From contig PCXK01000007.1 of assembly GCA_002787635.1 (NCBI GenBank), forward strand, positions 252,676 to 316,675: a DNA stretch of 64,000 nucleotides, read 5' to 3'. Each line of letters starts with the position of its first letter. Position 1 is the first letter of the stretch. Of the stretch, positions 1 through 18,200 are shown in pieces. The stretch is from Alphaproteobacteria bacterium CG11_big_fil_rev_8_21_14_0_20_39_49. Lineage in GTDB: Bacteria; Pseudomonadota; Alphaproteobacteria; Rickettsiales; UBA6187. The position numbers and the translations under genes were made by a program. A model generated the notes under the pieces. It worked only from the letters and a program-made list of their open reading frames with translations. It did not search any database and had not been told where the DNA came from.

Positions 1-3
1 GAT

Positions 4-1479
4 TTGGAGATATCTTTGCAGGAACATATAGGTCAACGCACAGATGCTAACAGAGCGGGCGTATGGCCGGGACTAAGTGAGGAGGATTTTGAGCTTATCG
101 CCAAGCAGGGCTTCGGTGATGGGACAAATGCCTATGCTCATTCTATGGCTTGGTTCAAGGGTCATCTATATGTAGGTACTACCAGAGGCAATTTTGCCCT
201 GATGAGAAAAAGGCTGCCAATCGGTATGGATCCATGGCCTATCGAGTGTCCTAAAGACCCTTTTGACCTTGGGCTTAATTCCGAGATATGGCGTTATAAC
301 CCGAAGAATAAAAGCTGGAAAAAAGTTTATAGGTCTCCTGATATAAAGGGAAGTAACGGAAAAATAATACCTGAGTCTTTAGGGCATCGCGGCATGGTGG
401 TTTTTAAAGACGCATTATATGTTACTACATGGTCGCCTGCGGCGGGTCCGGGACCTTTGATACTAAGAAGTGAAGACGGGATTAATTATGATGTTACATG
501 TGAACCCGGTTTGATGGGGTTGCCTGTGACGGCTATCAGGACTATGGTAGAACATAAAGATAAGCTTTATACCACGCCTTCAGGTTCAAGAGGGGGCAAC
601 CCGAATGTTGCTTCGCATTCAATAGTTTATGAAAGTGCAGACCCTGCCGGCGGTAATTGGGTTCCTGCCAGTGACTTCGGTTTTGGTGATGCGGAAAATA
701 AAACCGTTTTTGAAATGGTTTCTTTTGGTGAATATCTGTATGTAGGTACTTTTAATCTGGAGGGTTTTCAGGTTTGGCGTTCCGATATGGAAGGGGAAAA
801 GCCGTATAAATGGGAAAAAGTAATCGAAAAAGGTGCATATAGAGGTGAAGAAAACCAGATAGCTTGCAGTATGATGCCGTTCAAAGGGGCGTTATATGTG
901 GGCAGTGCAATACAAGGCGGCGGTGTTGATACGCAAAATAAGGTAGGTCCTGCCGCATCGGAATTAATAAGGATAAATACCGATGGCAGTTGGGATTTGA
1001 TAGTGGGGACTGAGCGTGATACACCCGACGGCTACAAAAAACCTTTGTCGGGTTGGGCGGAGGGTTTTGATAACTGGTTTGCAGGCTATTTCTGGCGTAT
1101 GTGCGAGCATGACGGCTGGTTGTATCTTTCAACATTTGACTGGAGTGTAACACTGCCGTATGCAAAGCGTGAGAGTTGGCCGCAGGAATTTTGTAACGTA
1201 ATTAACAATCTGGGTAGTGAATTTATCCTTAGAAATAATGCAGGTTGCGGTGTATATAGAAGTTTCGATGGAGAAAGTTGGGTACGTGTAACAAATAACG
1301 GTATGTCAAACCCTTACAATATAGGAATAAGGACTTTTGCGTCTTCGCCATATGGTTTATTTGTAGGTACGGGGAATTTGTTCGGTCCAAAAGTATGGTC
1401 GTTTAAAGAAGAGCGTTATGTAAATAATCCGCGTGGCGGGTGTGAGGTGTTCCTCGGAAATAAGAAAAAAGCGTTTTGA
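4..1479 (+). CDS. Beta-propeller-like repeat protein of unknown function; the frame is open to the window start, so the 5' end may be truncated
   Basis: About seven recurrences of a blade-like pattern (GHLYVGT, ALYVTT, KLYTTP, YLYVGT, ALYVGS, WLYLST, GLFVGT), each followed by a W/Y-R...W..V strand. No signal peptide or RTX GGxGxD repeats seen. Lies 12 nt upstream of the next gene. Confidence 0.5.
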   Translation: MEISLQEHIGQRTDANRAGVWPGLSEEDFELIAKQGFGDGTNAYAHSMAWFKGHLYVGTTRGNFALMRKRLPIGMDPWPIECPKDPFDLGLNSEIWRYNPKNKSWKKVYRSPDIKGSNGKIIPESLGHRGMVVFKDALYVTTWSPAAGPGPLILRSEDGINYDVTCEPGLMGLPVTAIRTMVEHKDKLYTTPSGSRGGNPNVASHSIVYESADPAGGNWVPASDFGFGDAENKTVFEMVSFGEYLYVGTFNLEGFQVWRSDMEGEKPYKWEKVIEKGAYRGEENQIACSMMPFKGALYVGSAIQGGGVDTQNKVGPAASELIRINTDGSWDLIVGTERDTPDGYKKPLSGWAEGFDNWFAGYFWRMCEHDGWLYLSTFDWSVTLPYAKRESWPQEFCNVINNLGSEFILRNNAGCGVYRSFDGESWVRVTNNGMSNPYNIGIRTFASSPYGLFVGTGNLFGPKVWSFKEERYVNNPRGGCEVFLGNKKKAF

Positions 1480-1491
1480 TAAGAGGTTATA

Positions 1492-4005
1492 ATGAGAAAC
1501 CAATCGGATATACAAAATGAAGAACGTCAGGTTTTCATAATTCCGCCTGTTATCGTAAAAGATATAGGCGGGAAAAAGCTATTACTCCTGCGTGCCAAAG
1601 GTTCGGGTGAATATCATCTGGAACTGGGAGAAGATGTTATATTTAAATTAAAGGAATGGGAATACCATGCTTTGAACGCATTATTTTCATTCGGCGGTGA
1701 TAAATATGACACATTACTTGTAAACACTAATGACAGGTTCGGTCTTAGCCTTACACGGTATGATATTGACGTGTTGCTCGACAGGATAGCAAAAAGAAGG
1801 CTTTTTGATAAAGATAACGCACCTAAACACCCTCTTACCAAGCCTTTTTATGAAGGTACTGCAAAAATAGAAAATATTGCCGGTAAAACGGCAAATAATA
1901 ATTTTACTGCCGGAGTTAGAAAAAAGGTATCGGGGAATTATAATTTAAAGGAAAAGATTACTTCCGTTTATTCACGGATTAAATCTGATGCAAAAGCTTT
2001 CTTTAAAGTAAATGAACAATTTACCGATGAGATTCAAGGTGATGATGACCTAAGTGATATTCAGATAGAACCTGAGGCTGCAAATTTTTCGGTGTTATTT
2101 AATCCGATGAGGTTTTTAAGAAAACATAATTCGCTAATATCAAAGGGGCGTTATCTTCTTTACGCATTGCCGGTATTATTTATTGCTTCACTTGTGATAC
2201 TTTCCAATAACCCGCAAATGATAAGCCACGACCTGCCGAGTGCGATAAGCGGATTCGGACTTATTGCCCACATAGCTTTCGGATTGGTAACCGTCAGTGC
2301 TTTTGTAACATTTGCAACTTCTGCCGTTGCGTTTTCTTATACGGCGACGGTTAAAGCAATATCGGTAGTTTATTTTTTCGGATTTATCCCTCGTTTTATA
2401 CCTGTGATAGAAGATACGGAAAAACTTAGCCGTGAGCAAAAAATGTGGGTTCACGCAACCTCATTGCTTGCACGTTTGGGGTTATTCGGTGTTGCCGTGT
2501 TAATGTGGTATAATTCAAGGCATCTGGGTGGAGTGATATCGGAATTTTTTGCGTTTTTATCATTTACGGCAATATTGTCGTTTTTCGTTGCTGCTTGCCC
2601 GTTCTATAAAAGCAGCGGATACAGGTTCTTAGTGCAGTTACTTAACGAACCTAACCTATGGGGAAAATCGATAACGGCATTATTTAATAAGGTGAACAAA
2701 GATGTTTATTCGCCTTCGGACAATAATGTTTTAGTTGCTTATGCTATTATATGCGTCTTTTTTACGTTTGCCCTTGCTGCTGCTGTGTTTGCAATGGCAT
2801 ATCACTGGTTTGAGATGGAGATAGGTAAAAATGCTCTCTTTATCGTATTTGCTCTGGTTGTGGCGTTTTTCTTAAGGCTGTCTAAGGAAGTAAAGAAAAT
2901 TAACGAAGAATATAAGCGTAACCTGAACTTTGTGCGTTGGCGTGAAGGGGCTTTCCCGACAGTTGTAGAGGAAGTGAAAACGGACGAGGAAAAGCCCGAC
3001 TACAGAAAAAAATACCTGCTTATTGCATCGGTAGTGCTTTTGCTGGTTCCGTATAATTATCAGCCGAGCGGTCAGGTGGTGATTATGCCTATTAACCAAC
3101 AGAAGCTAAGTGCCGATATAGCCGGTATAATAGATGAGGTTTATTACGAAGGCGGAGAGTTTGTAAGGCAGGGGACTGTTATCGCTAAGTTATCAGTGCA
3201 TGATTATGCAGCACAACTGGCTATCTTGAAGGCTAAGCGTGAAGAAAAAATTGCACAGATAAACTTTCTAAAGTCTATGCCTACTCCCGAGCAGGTGGCA
3301 GTGGCGGAAGAAAAGCTTGAGCTTGCCCGTGTGAGTGCAAAATATAGTCAGGCAGAATGTAACCGTCAAAAGCCGTTGCATGATTCGGGCGGGATATCCG
3401 AATCGCAAATGGCCATTATTGAGGAACAATGTGCGATTGACCGTCAAAATATAATGATAGCCGAAGCCAATCTTAATGAAATTGCGGCAGGTGCGTCTTA
3501 TGAGGAGATAGCCGCAGCGGAACTTTCCTTGCTGCCTCTTGAAGCTGAAATAAGGCTTTATGAAGATAAAATAGAGCGTAGTCATTTTAAAATGCCGTTT
3601 GACGGTAAGCTTACAACTTTGGGCTTAAAAGAAAGGAAAGGGCAGTTCCTTGAACTTGGCTCGCCGTTGGCGTCGGCTCATGATGACAAGCAGTTAAAGG
3701 CTATTTTGAAAGTACCTGAAGATGAGCTTTCATATATTAAGGTGGGTTCTGAAGTTGATGTGAAAACTGCCGCTTATCCGGGTAAGACATTCAAAGCCGT
3801 TGTTTCGGTTATTGAGCCTGATGTTGAGGAGCATGAAGGCAAAAGAATGATAAGCATGATAATTTCATTCAACACTAATGAAAAACTGCTAAAATCCGGG
3901 CTTTCAGGTTATGCGAAAGTTGATGGCGGCACTCAAATGTTAGGCGAAGTGTTGCTTACCTCTATAATGAAATTCGTTACAGTTGAACTTTGGGCATGGA
4001 TTTAA
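1492..4005 (+). CDS. Fusion protein: soluble N-domain, polytopic membrane domain (about 8-9 TM segments) and C-terminal HlyD-family membrane-fusion (periplasmic adaptor) domain
   Basis: C-terminal about 300 aa shows the HlyD pattern: a TM anchor (LLIASVVLLLVPY), a barrel-sandwich start (GQVVIMPINQQKLSADIAGIIDEVYYEGGEFVRQGTVIAKL), long coiled-coil heptads, then a second beta region (FKMPFDGKLT...GSEVDVKTAAYPGKTFKAVVSVIEP). Residues about 220-480 are hydrophobic helices. No HExxH, Walker A or Walker B motif. Confidence 0.65.
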   Translation: MRNQSDIQNEERQVFIIPPVIVKDIGGKKLLLLRAKGSGEYHLELGEDVIFKLKEWEYHALNALFSFGGDKYDTLLVNTNDRFGLSLTRYDIDVLLDRIAKRRLFDKDNAPKHPLTKPFYEGTAKIENIAGKTANNNFTAGVRKKVSGNYNLKEKITSVYSRIKSDAKAFFKVNEQFTDEIQGDDDLSDIQIEPEAANFSVLFNPMRFLRKHNSLISKGRYLLYALPVLFIASLVILSNNPQMISHDLPSAISGFGLIAHIAFGLVTVSAFVTFATSAVAFSYTATVKAISVVYFFGFIPRFIPVIEDTEKLSREQKMWVHATSLLARLGLFGVAVLMWYNSRHLGGVISEFFAFLSFTAILSFFVAACPFYKSSGYRFLVQLLNEPNLWGKSITALFNKVNKDVYSPSDNNVLVAYAIICVFFTFALAAAVFAMAYHWFEMEIGKNALFIVFALVVAFFLRLSKEVKKINEEYKRNLNFVRWREGAFPTVVEEVKTDEEKPDYRKKYLLIASVVLLLVPYNYQPSGQVVIMPINQQKLSADIAGIIDEVYYEGGEFVRQGTVIAKLSVHDYAAQLAILKAKREEKIAQINFLKSMPTPEQVAVAEEKLELARVSAKYSQAECNRQKPLHDSGGISESQMAIIEEQCAIDRQNIMIAEANLNEIAAGASYEEIAAAELSLLPLEAEIRLYEDKIERSHFKMPFDGKLTTLGLKERKGQFLELGSPLASAHDDKQLKAILKVPEDELSYIKVGSEVDVKTAAYPGKTFKAVVSVIEPDVEEHEGKRMISMIISFNTNEKLLKSGLSGYAKVDGGTQMLGEVLLTSIMKFVTVELWAWI

Positions 4006-4008
4006 ATA

Positions 4009-5487
4009 ATGAAAAAAATAATCTATATTATAACATTCTTATTTGCAGCTACTCAATATTCTTACGGTGCAAGCCTGAAAGAAGTTCTGGACGTAGCTTT
4101 GGAAAAAGATCCGTTATTAAGTAGTGCCAGATATAAAAGCTATGCGACAAGAGGGGACAAGACAGAGGCTTGCGGAAAGCTGTTCCCGCAATTGTCGGTG
4201 GATAGTGCCTATATTGATTATAATCAGGATAAGGCAGGCTCCGTTTTGGGCAGCGGTACGGCTAATACCAACGGTGTAATTGACGGTAGCCAGACTTCGA
4301 TAGGTCTTACTTTAAACCAGACATTGCTGGATTTGAACAAGCTCGCCGATTGTAAAATGTGGCGTGCGTCGGTAAGCCGTGATGATGCAGGATATGAAAT
4401 AGCGATGGAAGAGCTTATCTATAGGGTTGTGTTGAGCTATTTGAATGTGTTGTCTGCACAAAGCGACCTAAGTTCCGCAAATAGTGAAGTTAGATTGTAT
4501 CGGGAACTTAAAAAAGAAAAAGAACACGCTTTTGAAAGGGGGGTTGTAAGTCAAAGGGAGTTTTTCTCCGTCAGTGCTAAGCATGATAATGCCATTGCAA
4601 ATAAAGAAAAGGCGGCAAATGATTTTATAACCGCAAAGGAAAGGCTAAAGAACCTTTATGATACCGATATACCGAATGAAAAGTTATTAGTTATAAAAGA
4701 CGGTGTGGTATTGAGTCTTGTTGAGGAGGCTTCGCCGGAACACTGGGCAGATGTTGCCGAGCAGTCGAATCTCGGTTTAATAAGAAGTGAGCTTTCCGAA
4801 GAAGTTTATAAGTACGGAATGAAGATGGAGCAGTCAAGGTTCCTGCCTACTGTTGACGCTTTTGCTAACCATACCGATTATGATAGCGATTTTGACAGGA
4901 ACGGCACTCTTGATAACGGTAATTTTTCAACCGAGACAATCGGTGTAAGGCTAAACTGGAAGCTATTTTCAGGCGGAAGTGATTACGGCAGAGTTAGGGC
5001 GGCAAAGAACCGTTACCTGTCGGCACAGCAGGAGGCAGCCGCACAAAGGGATATGGTGCGGATAGATGCAAAGAACTCTTCAAGAGGTTTGATTGTTTTG
5101 AAATCCAAGATAGAAGCTTCAACTACATTATTGGAAGCTGCCCGCCTTGAATTTGAAGCCGTTAAGAAAGGTAGTGAATCAAAGACTAAAACCAAGTCAG
5201 ACCTGTTAGAGGCAACCCTGAATTATCTGGACGCAAGAACGCAGCTCAATAAAGCAAGATATGATTATGTAGTGGGAGTTATGGATTTTTGGAGGTCGAT
5301 AGGTTCGTTATCGGTGCAAAGTGTCGAGCAGATAGATTCCTTATTCATCGCTCCTAAAGATGACATAATAAGAATGTCAGGTGTTTTTGAAAGTAAGACC
5401 GGTTTCAAACAGTCGGGGCAAAATGAAGATATTTTGATGGAGTTGTTGAAATCATTCGGGAACCGGATAAATGATTTTATGATATAG
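4009..5487 (+). CDS. TolC-family outer membrane channel protein
   Basis: Signal peptide (MKKIIYIITFLFAATQYSYG) followed by the typical OEP opening LKEVLDVALEKDPLL. Two-repeat helical architecture, 492 aa. Starts 3 nt after the HlyD-fusion gene. Confidence 0.8.
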   Translation: MKKIIYIITFLFAATQYSYGASLKEVLDVALEKDPLLSSARYKSYATRGDKTEACGKLFPQLSVDSAYIDYNQDKAGSVLGSGTANTNGVIDGSQTSIGLTLNQTLLDLNKLADCKMWRASVSRDDAGYEIAMEELIYRVVLSYLNVLSAQSDLSSANSEVRLYRELKKEKEHAFERGVVSQREFFSVSAKHDNAIANKEKAANDFITAKERLKNLYDTDIPNEKLLVIKDGVVLSLVEEASPEHWADVAEQSNLGLIRSELSEEVYKYGMKMEQSRFLPTVDAFANHTDYDSDFDRNGTLDNGNFSTETIGVRLNWKLFSGGSDYGRVRAAKNRYLSAQQEAAAQRDMVRIDAKNSSRGLIVLKSKIEASTTLLEAARLEFEAVKKGSESKTKTKSDLLEATLNYLDARTQLNKARYDYVVGVMDFWRSIGSLSVQSVEQIDSLFIAPKDDIIRMSGVFESKTGFKQSGQNEDILMELLKSFGNRINDFMI

Positions 5488-5565
5488 GTATTTTTTTATG
5501 TTGAATTTATAGGAGTGTTAGTAAATATAGGTTTTGTACAAATTGCAATGCAATCTTTAATTGTA

Positions 5566-5773
5566 TGTCATGCTGAACTTGTTTCAGCATCTTATTGATA
5601 GTATTTTGACTTTTCCAGAGTTAGAATTGCAATCCCCGACTTGTTCGGGGATCTGAATAAGTTTAAATGAGATCCCCCTATAATTTGCTTCGCAAATTCG
5701 GGGGATGACAGCATTGTTGAAAAGTTAATTTACTATACTCGGAAAAGACCCTGAAACAAGTTCACCGATGACA
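5566..5773. repeat. Family-A palindromic element split by a nested family-B-like element
   Basis: Left arm tgtcatgctgaacttgtttcagcatct (5566-5592) and right arm gaccctgaaacaagttcaccgatgaca (5747-5773) are 154 bp apart, against about 15-17 bp in intact 69-bp copies. The interior holds atccccgacttgttcggggat and cccctataatttgcttcgcaaattcgggggatgaca (family-B arm). Confidence 0.7.
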
Positions 5774-6664: not shown

Positions 6665-7570
6665 ATGAAGCCACCACTATTTCTGCTTGCACCTCCTAGG
6701 TCATATACTTCGATAATTAACGCTATGATAGGGCAGCACCCCGAAGCTTACGGCTTGCCTGAGCTTAACCTGTTTTTTTATAATACCCTATTGGAGTTAT
6801 GGAACCCCGATAGTAAGGAAGTTCCGTTTGATAAAAAATCAACGCACGGAATGCTAAGAACGGTTGCGGAAATATTTACGGGCGAGCAGACCGACAGGTC
6901 TATCGAATGTGCAGAACACTGGTGTGCGGCAAGGCAGAATGTCCCTGTTGGTGAGGTGTTCAATGATATAAGGAGGCAGCTTGACCCGCTGATACCTGTC
7001 GATAAAAGCCCTTGGTACACACTTGATATTGAGTTTTTGATAAGAATAATAGAATCTTGCCCCGATGCAAAATTTATTCACCTTACCAGACATCCGATAA
7101 AGCAATGTGAGTCTAACCTTAGTTATGTTGATGCTACTATTGTCAAGATAATGAACTCAGTTGACTACACAAAGGATAAGGCAATTCTTGAGCCACAAAT
7201 GATCTGGCATGATATGAATATAAATATCCTGAATTTTCTGGAAAATTATGTTCCTAAAAACCAGTATATAAGAATGCGTGGTGAAGAGGTGATGGAAAAT
7301 ACCGAAGCCGAATTAGTCAAGATGTGCAGGTGGCTGGGGATACGTGACGATGCTGAGGCTATTGATGAGATGATGCACCCTGAAAGGTCGTCTTTTGCTA
7401 ATTTTGGTCCTTTAACAGCATTATTCGGTAATGATACGAATTTCTTAAAAGGTTCTAAGTTTAAAAAACACAAACCTGAATTGCCGGATCTTGATTCAAA
7501 GCTGCCATGGCGTGATGATGAGGGATTAAAGCCGCAGGTAAAAGAATTGGCACGTGAGTTCGGGTATTAG
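6665..7570 (+). CDS. Sulfotransferase family protein (PAPS-dependent)
   Basis: 5'-phosphosulfate-binding-loop-like LLAPPRSYTS near the N-terminus and a 3'-phosphate-binding-like motif HLTRHPIKQCESNLS. About 300 aa. Starts 10 nt after the preceding gene. Confidence 0.7.
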   Translation: MKPPLFLLAPPRSYTSIINAMIGQHPEAYGLPELNLFFYNTLLELWNPDSKEVPFDKKSTHGMLRTVAEIFTGEQTDRSIECAEHWCAARQNVPVGEVFNDIRRQLDPLIPVDKSPWYTLDIEFLIRIIESCPDAKFIHLTRHPIKQCESNLSYVDATIVKIMNSVDYTKDKAILEPQMIWHDMNINILNFLENYVPKNQYIRMRGEEVMENTEAELVKMCRWLGIRDDAEAIDEMMHPERSSFANFGPLTALFGNDTNFLKGSKFKKHKPELPDLDSKLPWRDDEGLKPQVKELAREFGY

Positions 7571-7573
7571 ATT

Positions 7574-8395
7574 ATGAGAAAGCATATAGGCAACATTACT
7601 ATACGTCAGTCGAAAATGGTCGAGAAAGACCCTAAGCGTGAAGAAATGCGTCAGAATCTTGTTAAGGAATACAGGTTGGAGGAGAGTAAATTAAAGGCTA
7701 TAAAAGAGCTAAAATCCATATGTAATAATGAAAATATAACGGAAGTTTTCCTGAATTTATTCGGCAAAGACGGAAAACCGCCAAAGCATATAACCATGAG
7801 GTCGATGATTGAGCAATATGAGTTATTGGACGCAAGAAGGTGGTGGTTTATTACTTTCCGTAAGGAGTTAATGGCTAAATATAAACAGCTTGACCCTGAC
7901 GGCTATAATGAAATTCTTCGCAGAGAAGAAGAACATGAGCGTTTGCGAAAAGAGAAAATGGAGCAGTCTTCTAAAGATTATATTGAAAAAAATGACAGAG
8001 TTCTAAAGCCGATAGTACAAAAAGGAATAAGGGATACTTTATTGAGGCGGCTTAATGTGCAGCTTAAGAAAAGGTCGCTAGGGCTTGATATGAGCAGTGC
8101 GGAGGTTTTGGGTAGTAAAAAAATCGAAAAAACCATGTGCTATCTGTTTACAGAATATATAAGAAATCCAAAATATAAGCTAATTACCGACCCTGTGGAA
8201 AGATGTAAAAAAATCAAAAGGGAAATACAGTGGCTTGATGCATTAATTGTTGAAGTTGAAGAAGGGCTGATAGACCTTAATGAGCTTGTCGAATCAGCCT
8301 ATATATATTTACAGAAAATATCTGCGGTAAATCATTATCCGGGTGAGTGGAGAAAAATAAGGGAAGAAAATCTGCTGCGAATGATAGTATGTTAA
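7574..8395 (+). CDS. Hypothetical K/E/R-rich, predicted helical protein; last gene of the island operon
   Basis: Long ORF starting 3 nt after the sulfotransferase stop. No recognisable motif, TM segment or signal peptide. Confidence 0.4.
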   Translation: MRKHIGNITIRQSKMVEKDPKREEMRQNLVKEYRLEESKLKAIKELKSICNNENITEVFLNLFGKDGKPPKHITMRSMIEQYELLDARRWWFITFRKELMAKYKQLDPDGYNEILRREEEHERLRKEKMEQSSKDYIEKNDRVLKPIVQKGIRDTLLRRLNVQLKKRSLGLDMSSAEVLGSKKIEKTMCYLFTEYIRNPKYKLITDPVERCKKIKREIQWLDALIVEVEEGLIDLNELVESAYIYLQKISAVNHYPGEWRKIREENLLRMIVC

Positions 8396-8608
8396 ATTTA
8401 TATTTATAGTAACGTTATACTATGGATTGACCATATAAGCCTATGCAAAAGGGTGTTTTTATTAGCAACCGGCTTAAAAAGTTCCCTCACCCGCTTGCGG
8501 GGTAGGGGTAGGGAGGGGGCAGTGGTAGTGGTCTTCTTGGTCGTTGGCACTTCAGGCAAAACATCTCATCTTGTTTACACTTATGTTTTCGCTTCTTTTG
8601 TCGTTCTT

Positions 8609-9051
8609 TCAAAAATCTGCGTAACTCCGTTCCGTGAAAAAGATAATAGGTTTGAATAAGTCACGTTCCATTGCCCTTAGTACTCGATTAGCATATTTTT
8701 CTGTCCAGTCACACCTTCTTGCTTCTAGCCATTCACGGGCTACATTTTCAAAACTGTTTTCGTGATTAACTTTGAGGGCTAGTTTATCTTGTTTTTTCTT
8801 TTGTGATGGATTTATTCCAGCTTCAATCTGTTTTTTATTTCGGCTTTTCTTTGTCTGGCTTCTTTTAATGTCATTTGAGGGTATGTACCCAAAGAAACCA
8901 TGCTTTCTTTGCCTAAAAACAAATATCTCAAACGCCAATATTTACTACCGTTCTTGTGGATTAATATATAAAGTCCTTTACCGTCACGTAATTTATAGGA
9001 TTTTTCCTCTATTGGAGCTGTTTTGATTTTCCGGTCTGTAAGTAAAGACAT
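8609..9051 (-). pseudogene. Remnant of a P4-type tyrosine integrase (N-terminal arm-binding/DUF4102-like part only; frameshifted and 3'-truncated)
   Basis: ORF 8812-9051 reads LTDRKIKTAPIEEKSYKLRDGKGLYILIHKNGSKYWRLRYLFLGKESMVSLGTYPQMTLKEARQRKAEIK, a classic P4 integrase N-terminus. Homology continues in another frame (ORF 8609-8938: GINPSQKKKQDKL...SFENVAREWLEARRCDWTEKYANRVLRAMERDLF) and then stops. No catalytic R..HxxR..Y domain remains. Confidence 0.75.
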
Positions 9052-9215: not shown

Positions 9216-9292
9216 TGGCGGGAGTGACGGGATTCGAACCCGCGACCTCTGCCGTGACAGGGCAGCGCTCTAACCAGCTGAGCTACACCCCC
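9216..9292 (-). tRNA. tRNA-Asp (anticodon GTC)
   Basis: The reverse complement gggggtgtagctcagctggttagagcgctgccctgtcacggcagaggtcgcgggttcgaatcccgtcactcccgcca folds as a cloverleaf. Anticodon loop ctGTCac, T-loop ttcgaat, encoded CCA. Confidence 0.92.
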
Positions 9293-15261: not shown

Positions 15262-18200
15262 ATGACCCAAGCACAAAAATTAGCATCTAATCCTGCACAT
15301 TCTGTTTATGTGGGGGCATCGGCAGGTTCGGGTAAAACGAAGGTTCTAACCGACAGGGTGCTTAGAATCCTGTTAGGAGGTGTTCCGCCCGGCAAAATAA
15401 TGTGCCTTACATTCACTAATGCCGCAGCGGCAGAGATGGCAAATCGTATCAATAAAAACCTGATGAAGTGGGTTGCGGTATCAAAAGCCGAGCTGATAAA
15501 GGATATTACGGACTTAACGGGAGTTGTGCCTGATGAAAAAACACTAACCCTTGCAAGAAGATTATTCGTTTCTGTTCTCGATACTCCGGACGGATTGAAA
15601 ATTCAGACTATTCACTCATTTTGTCAGAACCTTATGAGAAGATTTCCGCTTGAAGCCGGCATAGCTCCGCATTTTCAGGTGATTGACGAGCAAACTTCAT
15701 TAGAGCTTTTAAAAGAATCACGCATGAGGCTTTTGTCAAAAAAAGATGAGCATAGTGACGTTGTAAGCAAGGCAATCAATAATATTGCATGGAGGGTCGA
15801 TGAGGGCGGCTTTGCACAAATATTGCATGACATAACCAACGAGCGTGAAAAAATAGAATATTTGTTTAGCCGTTATAGCATGGTTGAGATAGTTGAAAGG
15901 ATTTGCAGCGTTTTGAATGTAAAGGCGGAAGAAACCGAGAAATCGGTAATATTTGATAATTATAAAGACTATGATATTGAAAAAATCAAGGACTATGCAG
16001 GTATTTTATCGGCAGGCGGGGCAAATGATATCAAGGCGGGAAGTTGTATAAAATCTTTTATAGATGTCTTTGAAAAACAAGGTGATATTGAAAGTGCGTT
16101 CAACAGTTATGTGCTTGCATTTTTAACGGCCGACTTTAAACCGAGAAAAAAACTTGTTAATAATAATATCGCTAAAAAATATCCTGATTGCGAACAGTGG
16201 ATGCAAAAAGAGCAATCTGACGTTTTAACATTGCTGGATAAGGTAAGGTCTGTTCGTATAGCACAATTGACTATAGATTTATTCCATGTAAGTGAGGCTA
16301 TTTTAATTCTGTATAAAAAAGCTAAAAACTCGAAAGCTTTTTTAGATTACAATGACTTGATAATAGCCAGTAATAATTTACTTAATAAAAGCGGTATAGC
16401 ACCTTGGATTTTATATAAATTAGACGGCGGAATCGACCATCTTCTGGTTGATGAGGCACAAGATACAAGCCCGCAGCAATGGAAGGTGATAGAGGCATTG
16501 TGCGGAGAGTTTTTTGTAGGGCAGGGAGCATCTGAAAAAAACCGTACCGTTTTTATAGTCGGAGATGAAAAACAATCTATTTTCAGCTTTCAAGGAGCTG
16601 ATCCTAAAGTGTTCAATCAAATGCAGTCGGTATTTTCCAAGAGGGCAAAAGATGCACAAAAAGGCTGGCAAACCGTGGCTTTGGATAGGTCTTTCCGTTC
16701 TACTTCTGCCGTTTTGAAATGCGTTGATGCTATATTTTCAAAAGAGAATATCAGAAAATCAGTATCGTTCCTGCCCGAATATATTCCCCATGTCGCCCAT
16801 AGGGAAAGTCATGCGGGGCTAGTTGAGCTTTGGTCTTTATTGGAAAAAGAGGAAAAGGACAGCCTTGAGCCTTGGACGTTGCCTATTAAGAGGATTGAGG
16901 CAACTAATATAAAAAGAAAATTAGCCGCAAAAATAGCCGCAACGGTTAAGGAATGGATAGACGGGGGAAGGAAGATAGAGGCTACCGGTAAGACGGTAAG
17001 TCCGGGTGACATAATGATATTGGTGCGTCGCCGTGATGCGTTGGTTGATTATCTGGTGAGCGAGTTAAAGGCAAATGATGTTGCGGTTGCAGGTGTGGAC
17101 AGAATGATATTGACCGAGCATATTGCGGTAATGGATTTAATGGCATTGGGTAACTTCCTGTTGCTGCCGGAAGATGACCTGACTTTAGCCTCGGTTTTAA
17201 AAAGCCCCCTTATAGGTATGAGCGAAGAAGAGTTGTTTGAAATTGCTTATAAAAGAGGAAAGAGGTCTTTATGGTCTGCCCTAAAGGAAAAGGAAGGAGC
17301 TGTTTTTCAGGCAGCTTATGAGTATCTTTTGGGCTTATTGAATAAGACGGATTTTGTTTCGCCGTTTGAGATATATTCACATATTCTGGAGGCAAAAAGC
17401 GGAAGAAAAAAACTTGCCTCAAGGCTTGGTGAGGAAGTGAACGACCCGATTGATGAGTTCCTGTCACTGGCTCTTGCCTATGAGAGCAGCCACCCCCCTG
17501 CGTTACAAGGTTTTTTAAGCTGGCTTTCAATGGGCAAAACCGAAGTTAAGCGTGACCTTGAGCAGGGCAATGATGAGGTTCGTATTATGACCGTGCATGG
17601 CTCAAAGGGATTGCAGGCTCCGATTGTTTTCTTGCCCGATACAACATCATTGCCGAAGAACAAAAGCGGCAATATATTCTGGACTGAAAATAACGGTGAG
17701 CCGATAATGTTATGGAGCGGCTTGAGTGAGAACTTAAATGAGTATTGTAATGGTTTAAAAGATAGTGCTAAAAGTCAGACTAATGACGAGTATTTAAGGT
17801 TGCTGTATGTAGCACTTACCAGAGCCGAAGATGAACTTTATATAGCAGGCTATCAGGATAATAAAAAAATAACAGATGAGTGTTGGTATAATGTGATAAA
17901 AAACGGCATGGAAGATATCGCGGAGAATGTTGACGGCAAGCTGGTGCTTAGGTCTGAGCAGTTATCTGAAGTTGTTAATGATAATGAAGTTCAAAGGGTT
18001 GAGGAGATGGCGGTTTTATTGCCTGAGTTTGTCGGGCAAAAAGTGCCTCAGGAACCAATGCCTTCTGTTCCTCTTACACCTTCTCAGCTTGAAGGTGATG
18101 TGCCTGTCGTTAACTCTCCTTTAGTCAAGGGGGCGATACTTAAAGGAAAACTAATTCACAAATTACTACAATATCTGCCCGAACTGCCCGTTGAAAAAAG

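Follow-up and report, generated by a model that had tools for sequence, protein, structure and literature searches.

A degenerate M50-like membrane domain fused to an HlyD-type adaptor and encoded beside TolC in a polyketide synthase/sulfotransferase gene cluster

The window analysed here is a stretch of 64,000 nucleotides from the genome of Alphaproteobacteria bacterium CG11_big_fil_rev_8_21_14_0_20_39_49 (contig PCXK01000007.1, forward-strand positions 252,676 to 316,675), and the subject of this work is a gene close to its start that encodes a protein of 837 amino acids (aa). The protein is a three-part fusion of a small cytoplasmic domain, a dead-protease membrane domain and a TolC-docking HlyD adaptor. 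Its gene begins 12 nt after the stop codon of the gene upstream, and its own stop codon lies 3 nt ahead of the start of a TolC-family gene. An earlier reading of this DNA (referred to below as the sequence-only reading) had already singled out this open reading frame (ORF). The parts of the protein and its TolC neighbour are listed here; AF2 stands for AlphaFold2, pLDDT and pTM for its predicted local distance difference test and predicted template modelling scores, and TM for transmembrane helix.

1492..4005 (+): fusion gene, 837 aa, ATG start; its translation matches exactly the sequence quoted by the sequence-only reading
1492..1851 (+): cytoplasmic N-domain, aa 1-120 (AF2 model, pLDDT 91.2, pTM 0.83)
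1852..2091 (+): variable linker (aa 121-200) with many K, N, E and A residues; in alignment A1 its length varies and its conservation is poor
2092..2952 (+): M50-like pseudoprotease membrane domain, aa 201-487, starting with an LFNP motif (NF041824 match, AF2 model, Foldseek)
2305..2319 (+): V272-T273-F274-A275-T276, the degenerate counterpart of HExxH, on the cytoplasmic side of TM2 (column probe, see below)
2596..2622 (+): degenerate (N)PxxxxDG motif C369-P370-F-Y-K-S-S375-G376-Y377, retaining P370 and G376 but with Ser in place of the Asp ligand
3004..3057 (+): seventh span, the HlyD N-terminal anchor, aa 505-522 (hydropathy, AF2, topology)
3058..3936 (+): periplasmic adaptor of the YbhG/EmrA/DevB type, aa 523-815, in which a helical hairpin of ~120 aa lies between the two halves of a split lipoyl/barrel-sandwich, together with a beta-barrel
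3937..4002 (+): hydrophobic tail that closes the protein (aa 816-837, last residues ...F-V-T-V-E-L-W-A-W-I), conserved in A1
4009..5487 (+): outer-membrane factor of the TolC family, 492 aa, signal peptide present (Pfam OEP 161 bits; TIGR01844 E=1.7e-52)

It is clear that the fusion is a single gene. Positions 1-5594 of the window are identical in contigs of three independent groundwater metagenome runs, with zero indels inside the fusion ORF, and a fourth run has a variant form that differs by about 40-60 substitutions in each contig piece, again with no insertion or deletion inside the ORF. The exact 837-aa protein is present on 15 contigs, some of them of about 946 kb. All parts are kept in the full-length homologues (828-854 aa; 39-67% identity), and the same three-part architecture was found in 271 species genomes of GTDB, scanned with the alignment of the P0016 group at one genome per species, and in 877 protein cluster representatives. 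These observations refute the joining error that the sequence-only reading had named as a possible objection. A GTDB scan with close-clade patterns returned zero relatives, a word-indexed homologue search with the membrane-domain profile gave three matches, and tblastn of plasmids gave no match. The best 79 loci of the 271 relatives were fetched; the fetched loci used below number 92, and the 56 large GTDB loci (at least 20 kb) were used for counts of gene context. The family is found in Pseudomonadota, Desulfobacterota, Myxococcota, Nitrospirota, Planctomycetota, Verrucomicrobiota and Acidobacteriota, and the cultured carriers among the fetched GTDB loci are Neptuniibacter, Ideonella, Rubrivivax, Pseudomonas, Aquipseudomonas, Cognatiluteimonas and Desulfamplus.

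The membrane domain is homologous to a group of intramembrane proteases. The NCBIfam model NF041824 ('daptide biosynthesis intramembrane metalloprotease') aligns with aa 201-473 over its positions 102-378 of 379 (54.5 bits, E=1e-14). Of ten diverse relatives, nine are matched by this model as well (E-values of 3e-4 to 2e-15), and one relative is also matched by NF058609 (YydH/LiaK). Given that all scores with the NCBIfam protease models are far under the cut-offs (54.5 bits against 300 for NF041824), these matches indicate homology and not membership. When the AF2 model of the membrane domain was compared with the PDB by Foldseek, the top match was SpoIVFB (8vjl_A), an M50 site-2 protease (S2P), with a probability of 0.99, an E-value of only 0.064 and a TM-score of 0.33-0.37, and the remaining matches had a probability of at most 0.18. 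The impression of the sequence-only reading that this block recalls M50 proteins is therefore borne out by the family profile, by its recurrence in the relatives and by SpoIVFB being the only confident structural match. Its reference to a reported M50-HlyD fusion architecture found no counterpart: no paper reporting such a fusion, and no description of the fusion protein or its gene cluster, was found in the searchable literature, subscription literature being outside the scope. Pfam otherwise had no match in this region; a separate match of Pfam DUF3021 to aa 415-472 (25.7 bits, with the domain scanned alone) was judged to reflect hydrophobic composition and to carry no functional information.

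The AF2 model of this domain was built from 35 sequences (pLDDT 84.7, pTM 0.78) and places TM1 at aa 213-239, TM2 at 257-282, a membrane beta-hairpin at 286-307, TM3 at 314-345, TM4 at 348-368, TM5 at 411-444 and TM6 at 448 to about 468, followed by a cytoplasmic helical extension. In the model, the block at aa 213-487 thus contains six spanning helices, three that do not span and the beta-hairpin, nine helices in all. The count of eight to nine hydrophobic helices made by the sequence-only reading thus fits the number of helices and overstates the number of spans, because only six of the nine are long enough to cross the membrane. Hydropathy, the AF2 model and the charges of the loops agree on a topology with the N-terminus in the cytoplasm, seven spans and the C-terminal adaptor in the periplasm, the cytoplasmic loops containing 19 Lys and Arg residues versus 3 in the periplasmic loops.

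The motif search of the 837-aa ORF found neither HExxH nor NxxPxxxLDG, as the sequence-only reading had stated. The corresponding columns were located with a column probe, in which residues were rewritten in the window sequence and the change in the NF041824 score was read, the unmodified domain scoring 51.7 bits. With the start of HExxH scanned over positions 268-277, the motif written at aa 272-276 raised the score to 73.1 bits (+21.4) and made the YydH/LiaK model appear, and the nine other placements gave 53.7-62.9 bits. The replacement S375D in silico added 5.9 bits. From these scores, the zinc ligands and the catalytic Glu of the proteases correspond to V272, T273, T276 and S375. Among the best 150 representatives, column 272 is occupied by S/T/A/V, column 273 by Q/T/R/K and column 276 by Q/R/T/K; P370 is kept in 100% and G376 in 95% of the family, and position 375 is Asp in only 41%. 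The string HExxH occurs in none of these 150 representatives and in the membrane domain of none of the 92 locus proteins; the only such string that the 92 fusion ORFs contain is placed upstream of the gene and outside the membrane domain. Given that the HExxH columns are degenerate and that the motif is absent from the representatives and the locus proteins, the membrane domain is, on sequence grounds, a pseudoprotease, and the same holds for the family to the extent that it was examined. The suggestion that the domain is catalytically dead is thereby supported, with V272-T273-F-A-T276 at the HExxH columns and S375 at that of the Asp ligand.

The segment H260-I-A-F-G264 was also considered as a remnant of HExxH, since the close clade shows no variation at H260, F263 and G264, and was rejected: writing the motif there lowers the score to 47.7 bits, and H260A does not lower the NF041824 score. 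Position 260 is His in only 45% of the relatives. Conserved instead of the active site are LFxP before TM1, D247, N269 (Ser in the window protein), P300-R301-F302 of the hairpin, R314, W319, R328, W339, R343, P370, G376-Y377 and P387. Relatives are named 'hypothetical protein' by NCBI, and two of them carry the label 'putative peptide zinc metalloprotease protein' from the Joint Genome Institute (JGI), which is contradicted by the active-site evidence obtained here.

After the membrane block come an anchor and an HlyD-type adaptor, the latter formed by the C-terminal 315 aa, as the sequence-only reading had seen. The anchor at aa 505-522 ends in a near-invariant P-Y-x-Y motif (aa 520-523) and is followed by matches to HlyD_D23 (66.4 bits, cut-off 30), HlyD_3 (53.5 bits, cut-off 22.2) and Biotin_lipoyl_2 (aa 537-567, 19 bits, under its cut-off). 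The alignments of the NCBIfam models PRK03598 (YbhG type) and TIGR00998 (EmrA type) span aa 534-779, the DevB model TIGR02971 matches weakly, TIGR01730 scores 81.7 bits, just under its cut-off of 94.9, and EmrA in the PDB (4tko) matches aa 618-776. On homologues, PF25954 is also found, and PF25881 (HH_YBHG) is among the precomputed matches of P0002, P0004 and P0007. From its profile matches, this region is classed as an HlyD family member, an adaptor of the YbhG/EmrA/DevB kind. The C-terminal tail and the P-Y-x-Y motif are specific to the fusion family, and in the wider family the tail is conserved enough to be searched for with the pattern RF[VFI]x[VI][EQD][VLM]WSW. In 42 of the 56 large GTDB loci, the fusion gene has a TolC homologue no more than 10 kb away, often as its immediate neighbour.

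The first 200 residues or so are soluble, as had been proposed, with a folded domain at aa ~13-121 and a linker at aa ~121-200; the domain at aa ~13-120 is common to about 30 cluster representatives. The AF2 model gives strands at 28-34, 40-45 and 48-54, then helices at 55-63, 72-83 and 89-101, in agreement with the order of beta strands followed by helices read from the sequence, and a conserved HPL(T/L)xPF tail follows the helices. This predicted order of three strands and three helices is the topology of PqqD and of the recognition element (RRE) of ribosomally synthesised and post-translationally modified peptides (RiPPs). The resemblance to PqqD/RRE domains claimed by the sequence-only reading fits the predicted topology, with weak similarity at the sequence level. 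Comparison by hhalign with a small profile of three PDB-verified PqqD sequences gave a weak match (probability 8.9%, pairwise E 0.0037) in the expected register, with aa 47-105 opposite PqqD 29-87. Pfam found PqqD in none of 29 members of the N-domain, Foldseek against the PDB gave no RRE in the top 50 and no match with E at or below 1e-3, and a PDB profile search with the domain returned nothing. The model is consistent with a winged-helix-like cytoplasmic docking domain, possibly derived from an RRE.

The fusion gene is flanked by the following further genes of a cluster.

4..1479 (+): cytoplasmic beta-propeller-like protein, 491 aa, with six regular-expression matches of an [FH]K[GD]xLYVGT-like motif and a seventh similar segment
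5809..6654 (+): hydrolase of the alkaline phosphatase superfamily (sulfatase-like, STM4013-like)
6665..7570 (+): sulfotransferase (Sulfotransfer_3, Pfam E=8.9e-21)
7574..8395 (+): conserved 273-aa protein, the last cluster gene in the source genome

The motifs of the 491-aa protein are spaced by ~50-85 aa, which suggests a seven-bladed propeller; the protein is without a signal peptide and matches no Pfam, NCBIfam or PDB family besides a weak match to Kelch. Its gene is nearly always a neighbour of the fusion gene and in most related loci immediately precedes it, with synteny seen in L001-L016 and many GTDB loci. Upstream on the source contig are two polyketide synthase (PKS) genes of the polyunsaturated fatty acid (PUFA) synthase-like kind, a 102-aa ORF similar to an acyl carrier protein (ACP), a 524-aa protein of a phosphodiesterase family and an alpha/beta-hydrolase. 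The ACP-like ORF follows the PKS genes (positions 5276-5584 of L093, upstream of the window, and 5665-5973 of L001), contains a D-I-G-F-D-S-S motif and gives a weak match to PP-binding (E=0.0025). In an exhaustive search, the cassette of PKS, ACP, phosphodiesterase, alpha/beta-hydrolase, 490-aa protein, fusion gene and TolC recurred in relatives down to E=1e-71. Within 10 kb of the fusion gene, PKS genes are found in 42 and sulfotransferase genes in 45 of the 56 large GTDB loci, and 53 have either. The linkage of PKS, sulfotransferase and TolC survives rearranged gene order, the order in Burkholderiales being sulfotransferase, TolC, fusion gene. As judged from these gene assignments, the fusion gene is embedded in a conserved cluster of PUFA-synthase-like PKS, ACP, phosphodiesterase, hydrolase and sulfotransferase genes. 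That the setting is a PKS/sulfotransferase cluster and not a RiPP cluster is a point absent from the sequence-only reading.

The family extends beyond this PKS-linked clade. Among its distant members, P0106 (L012, Stappia sp., 1680 aa), P0039, P0125 and P0072 carry very long stretches of 460-1030 aa without annotation on the N-terminal side of the pseudoprotease domain; P0072 is apparently without the HlyD part, and the Stappia protein is located outside a PKS context.

Several other observations concern the borders of the cluster. Between the TolC stop codon (5487) and the next start (5809), positions 5566-5745 hold a dispersed repeat of ~150 nt with short GC-rich hairpins, such as atgctgaacttgtttcagcat and ccccgacttgttcgggg. 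The assembler depth rises from 25-67x in the flanks to 530-1590x in this repeat, and 147-153 nt are skipped at many alternative joints. The repeat looks like a high-copy element of the source genome resembling a repetitive extragenic palindrome (REP) or a miniature inverted-repeat transposable element (MITE). A 47-nt direct repeat with three mismatches (...CCCTCACCCGCTTGCGGGG.AGG..TAGGGAGGGGGCAGT) is found at window positions 8477-8523 and at L093 8376-8422, 87 nt upstream of window position 1. The two copies bracket a segment of 8.6 kb, from the propeller-like gene through the gene of the 273-aa protein, and assembly contigs break or jump there. Right after the last cluster gene, an integrase N-terminal fragment (8609-8938, minus strand; Arm-DNA-bind_3 on the source contig) stands beside a tRNA-Asp gene (9216-9292, minus strand). 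The cluster of the source genome stops at these two features and is without the genes for repeats-in-toxin (RTX) proteins, esterase and phosphopantetheinyl transferase (PPTase) that follow in L001, L004 and L007. In L001, two RTX proteins with 25 and 15 matches of HemolysinCabind repeats are encoded at 16649-18739 and 19646-21343, with equivalents in L004 and L007, and esterases of the polyhydroxybutyrate (PHB) depolymerase type also lie downstream of the cluster in the closest relatives only. Farther along the window, positions 15262-18624 (+) encode a 1120-aa UvrD-type helicase fused to a PD-(D/E)XK nuclease (AddA/RecB-like), and positions 18665-26995 (-) hold an unrelated block of type II secretion system (T2SS) and type IV pilus-like genes, with T2SS protein F, the T2SSE ATPase, a secretin and a PilM-PilN fusion.

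Pump genes were looked for at the same loci. The motif of ATP-binding cassette (ABC) ATPases, as a strict sequence motif, is absent from the 64-kb window and present in only 3 of the 92 loci, never adjoining the fusion gene. No Pfam family of ABC, resistance-nodulation-division (RND) or major facilitator superfamily (MFS) transporters is listed among the called genes of the nine annotated PKS-cassette loci. The idea of the sequence-only reading that a single polypeptide could act as membrane platform and adaptor fits the conserved adjacency of TolC and the absence of a pump gene nearby.

We consider it somewhat probable that the fusion protein and TolC are the two halves of a trans-envelope exporter dedicated to the cluster product, with the fusion protein as the half in the inner membrane and periplasm. 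Given that the gene lies in a lipid-type PKS cluster without a conventional pump nearby, the fusion may be an unrecognised inner-membrane export module. In such an exporter, the periplasmic part would form a ring that docks to TolC, as in EmrA, MacA and HlyD, and the fused pseudoprotease domains would take the place of the usual pump. The cytoplasm-facing cavity of the S2P fold, its beta-hairpin and its lateral access could take up a lipid-like product, amphipathic and probably sulfated, either out of the inner leaflet or directly from the biosynthetic enzymes and pass it into the duct of adaptor and TolC. The conserved R301, R314, R328 and R343 with D247 are candidate residues that may couple to protons or bind an anionic (sulfate) head group. 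The N-domain may tether a cytosolic partner, for which the stand-alone ACP, the 491-aa propeller-like protein and the hydrolase are candidates.

A stronger form of this proposal, which we put forward as a tentative possibility, is that the exporter is TolC-dependent and pump-free, a ring of S2P-derived pseudoprotease domains serving as the conduit for a sulfated polyketide lipid, either passively (driven by synthesis) or with proton coupling via the intramembrane Asp and Arg residues. This would extend to bacteria the Derlin principle, the reuse of a dead intramembrane protease for translocation. The fused membrane module is unprecedented for a TolC-dependent exporter; it would be categorically new only if pump-free function were shown.

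Several points weigh against the proposed exporter role, in which transport activity, substrate and oligomeric state are putative. The link of the membrane domain to the classical M50 proteases is indirect. Apart from the modest E-value and TM-score of the SpoIVFB match, PF02163 gave no significant match to the domain, also with HExxH written in (E=4-9), hhalign of the membrane-domain alignment against SpoIVFB and mjS2P gave nothing, and neither did a PDB profile search. A direct profile link to classical S2P was consequently dropped, and because the comparison with SpoIVFB and mjS2P is null the connection rests on the YydH and daptide families and on the fold. The loci screened gave no module for energy coupling, the ABC screen being a strict sequence motif and the RND and MFS screen relying on the precomputed Pfam lists of nine loci; a pump may possibly be encoded elsewhere in the genome. 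To our knowledge, every characterised TolC-dependent system has an energised inner-membrane transporter. Finally, the Pseudomonas-clade loci have no local TolC.

These last points favour a different explanation, namely that the protein is an elaborate adaptor for a conventional ABC, MFS or RND pump encoded elsewhere, in which the pseudoprotease is a scaffold or a substrate-recruiting or regulatory module. An energised transporter would be in keeping with what is established for TolC-dependent systems, and YbhG, EmrA and DevB, which the adaptor resembles, have ABC or MFS pumps as partners. Given that the loci of the Pseudomonas clade are without a local TolC, components encoded elsewhere are used at least sometimes. 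Nonetheless, this explanation is rather unlikely in our judgement: in 92 loci from many phyla and with several gene orders, no pump gene is conserved nearby, while TolC, PKS and sulfotransferase stay linked, and a six-span domain with near-invariant P300, R301, W339, R343, P370 and G376, fused to the adaptor one to one, would crowd the position of a pump.

The presence of genes for RTX proteins with 15-25 HemolysinCabind repeats a few kb downstream in L001, L004 and L007, together with the established participation of the cytoplasmic N-terminal domain of HlyD in substrate recognition, raises the question of whether the protein is the adaptor of a type-1-like secretion system with RTX cargo. 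This is improbable, given that no RTX ORF is present in the window or in the 56 large GTDB loci, that there is no ABC exporter, and that the association seen across the family is with PKS and sulfotransferase genes; RTX proteins as general cargo were rejected because they occur in the closest relatives only. Still less probable, and very much so, is a machine for RiPP maturation and export, in which the RRE-like domain would bind the leader, the membrane domain would cleave without HExxH and the adaptor would export. The nearest named families are indeed RiPP leader proteases (daptide, YydH/LiaK), and the N-domain has the RRE topology and its weak PqqD match. Against this, the catalytic Glu and all zinc ligands are gone, no alternative metal triad is conserved (H260 in 45%, Asp375 in 41%), and no precursor-peptide or RiPP-tailoring gene was seen among the called genes of the nine Pfam-annotated loci, small ORFs not having been searched exhaustively. 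An assembly or frameshift artefact joining separate genes is refuted by the identical independent contigs without indels, the 15 contigs and the hundreds of genomes with the same architecture and length.

The proposed exporter matters in several ways. Textbook TolC machines pair an adaptor with an energised pump, and here a conserved, widespread family has a dead protease fold fused to the adaptor. If the protein exports alone, it would be a new inner-membrane export module and a new example of the reuse of a pseudoenzyme. The family also flags an uncharacterised and widespread PUFA-synthase-like/sulfotransferase cluster, the product of which probably ends up on the cell surface or in the medium. 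Cultured carriers such as Rubrivivax, Neptuniibacter, Ideonella and Pseudomonas open the question to genetics.

When the protein is compared with known systems, its similarities lie with a different system for each part. The N-domain shares with RRE and PqqD domains the predicted three strands and three helices and the weak in-register profile match at aa 47-105, and differs from them in the lack of a Pfam or Foldseek match and in having no RiPP precursor or RiPP enzymes seen among its annotated neighbours. Tripartite efflux and type 1 secretion systems differ from the screened loci in encoding an ABC, RND or MFS transporter with the adaptor, and for type 1 secretion the RTX cargo genes are near the closest relatives only, with none in the window or the 56 GTDB loci.

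For the membrane domain, SpoIVFB, mjS2P and RseP (PF02163) are similar in that SpoIVFB is the best and only confident structural match; they differ in the absence of any significant sequence or profile match, in the low TM-score and in the metal site, which is absent from the window protein. The likeness is closer to the HExxH proteases of the YydH/LiaK (NF058609) and daptide (NF041824) families, YydH being placed by UniProt in peptidase family M50B. Besides the homology of aa 201-473 to positions 102-378 of the daptide model, the shared features are, in the same order, the helix of the HExxH position, the membrane beta-hairpin with an invariant Pro, the two helices that follow, the P....(D)G motif and an active-site side that faces the cytoplasm. 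Unlike these proteases, the window protein has all of its His, Glu, His and Asp replaced, scores about 52-57 bits against cut-offs of 300 and 225, carries an extra N-terminal soluble domain and a C-terminal HlyD adaptor, and is encoded in a PKS cluster and not a RiPP cluster. Derlins and iRhoms, of the rhomboid fold, and the S2P-like EGY3 are intramembrane pseudoproteases that are reused for membrane transport or regulation. The window protein resembles them in an intramembrane protease fold without catalysis that keeps the substrate-engaging membrane architecture, and differs in that they have another fold (rhomboid) or belong to another organism or role, none being fused to a bacterial efflux adaptor.

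With the adaptors YbhG, EmrA and DevB, the window protein has in common the single anchor helix, the split lipoyl domain, the helical hairpin, the beta-barrel and the adjacent TolC-family gene; it differs in the N-terminal extension of 500 aa with six more spans, the ...VELWAW tail and the lack of a partner pump gene. In the DevBCA-HgdD system of Anabaena, an adaptor and a TolC-like protein that are encoded with a PKS of the Pfa/Hgl type export the heterocyst glycolipid, driven by the ABC transporter DevCA. The locus described here is similar in having an adaptor and TolC together with a PKS, and in the weak TIGR02971 match of the window protein, and differs in having the fused pseudoprotease domain in place of the DevCA transporter.

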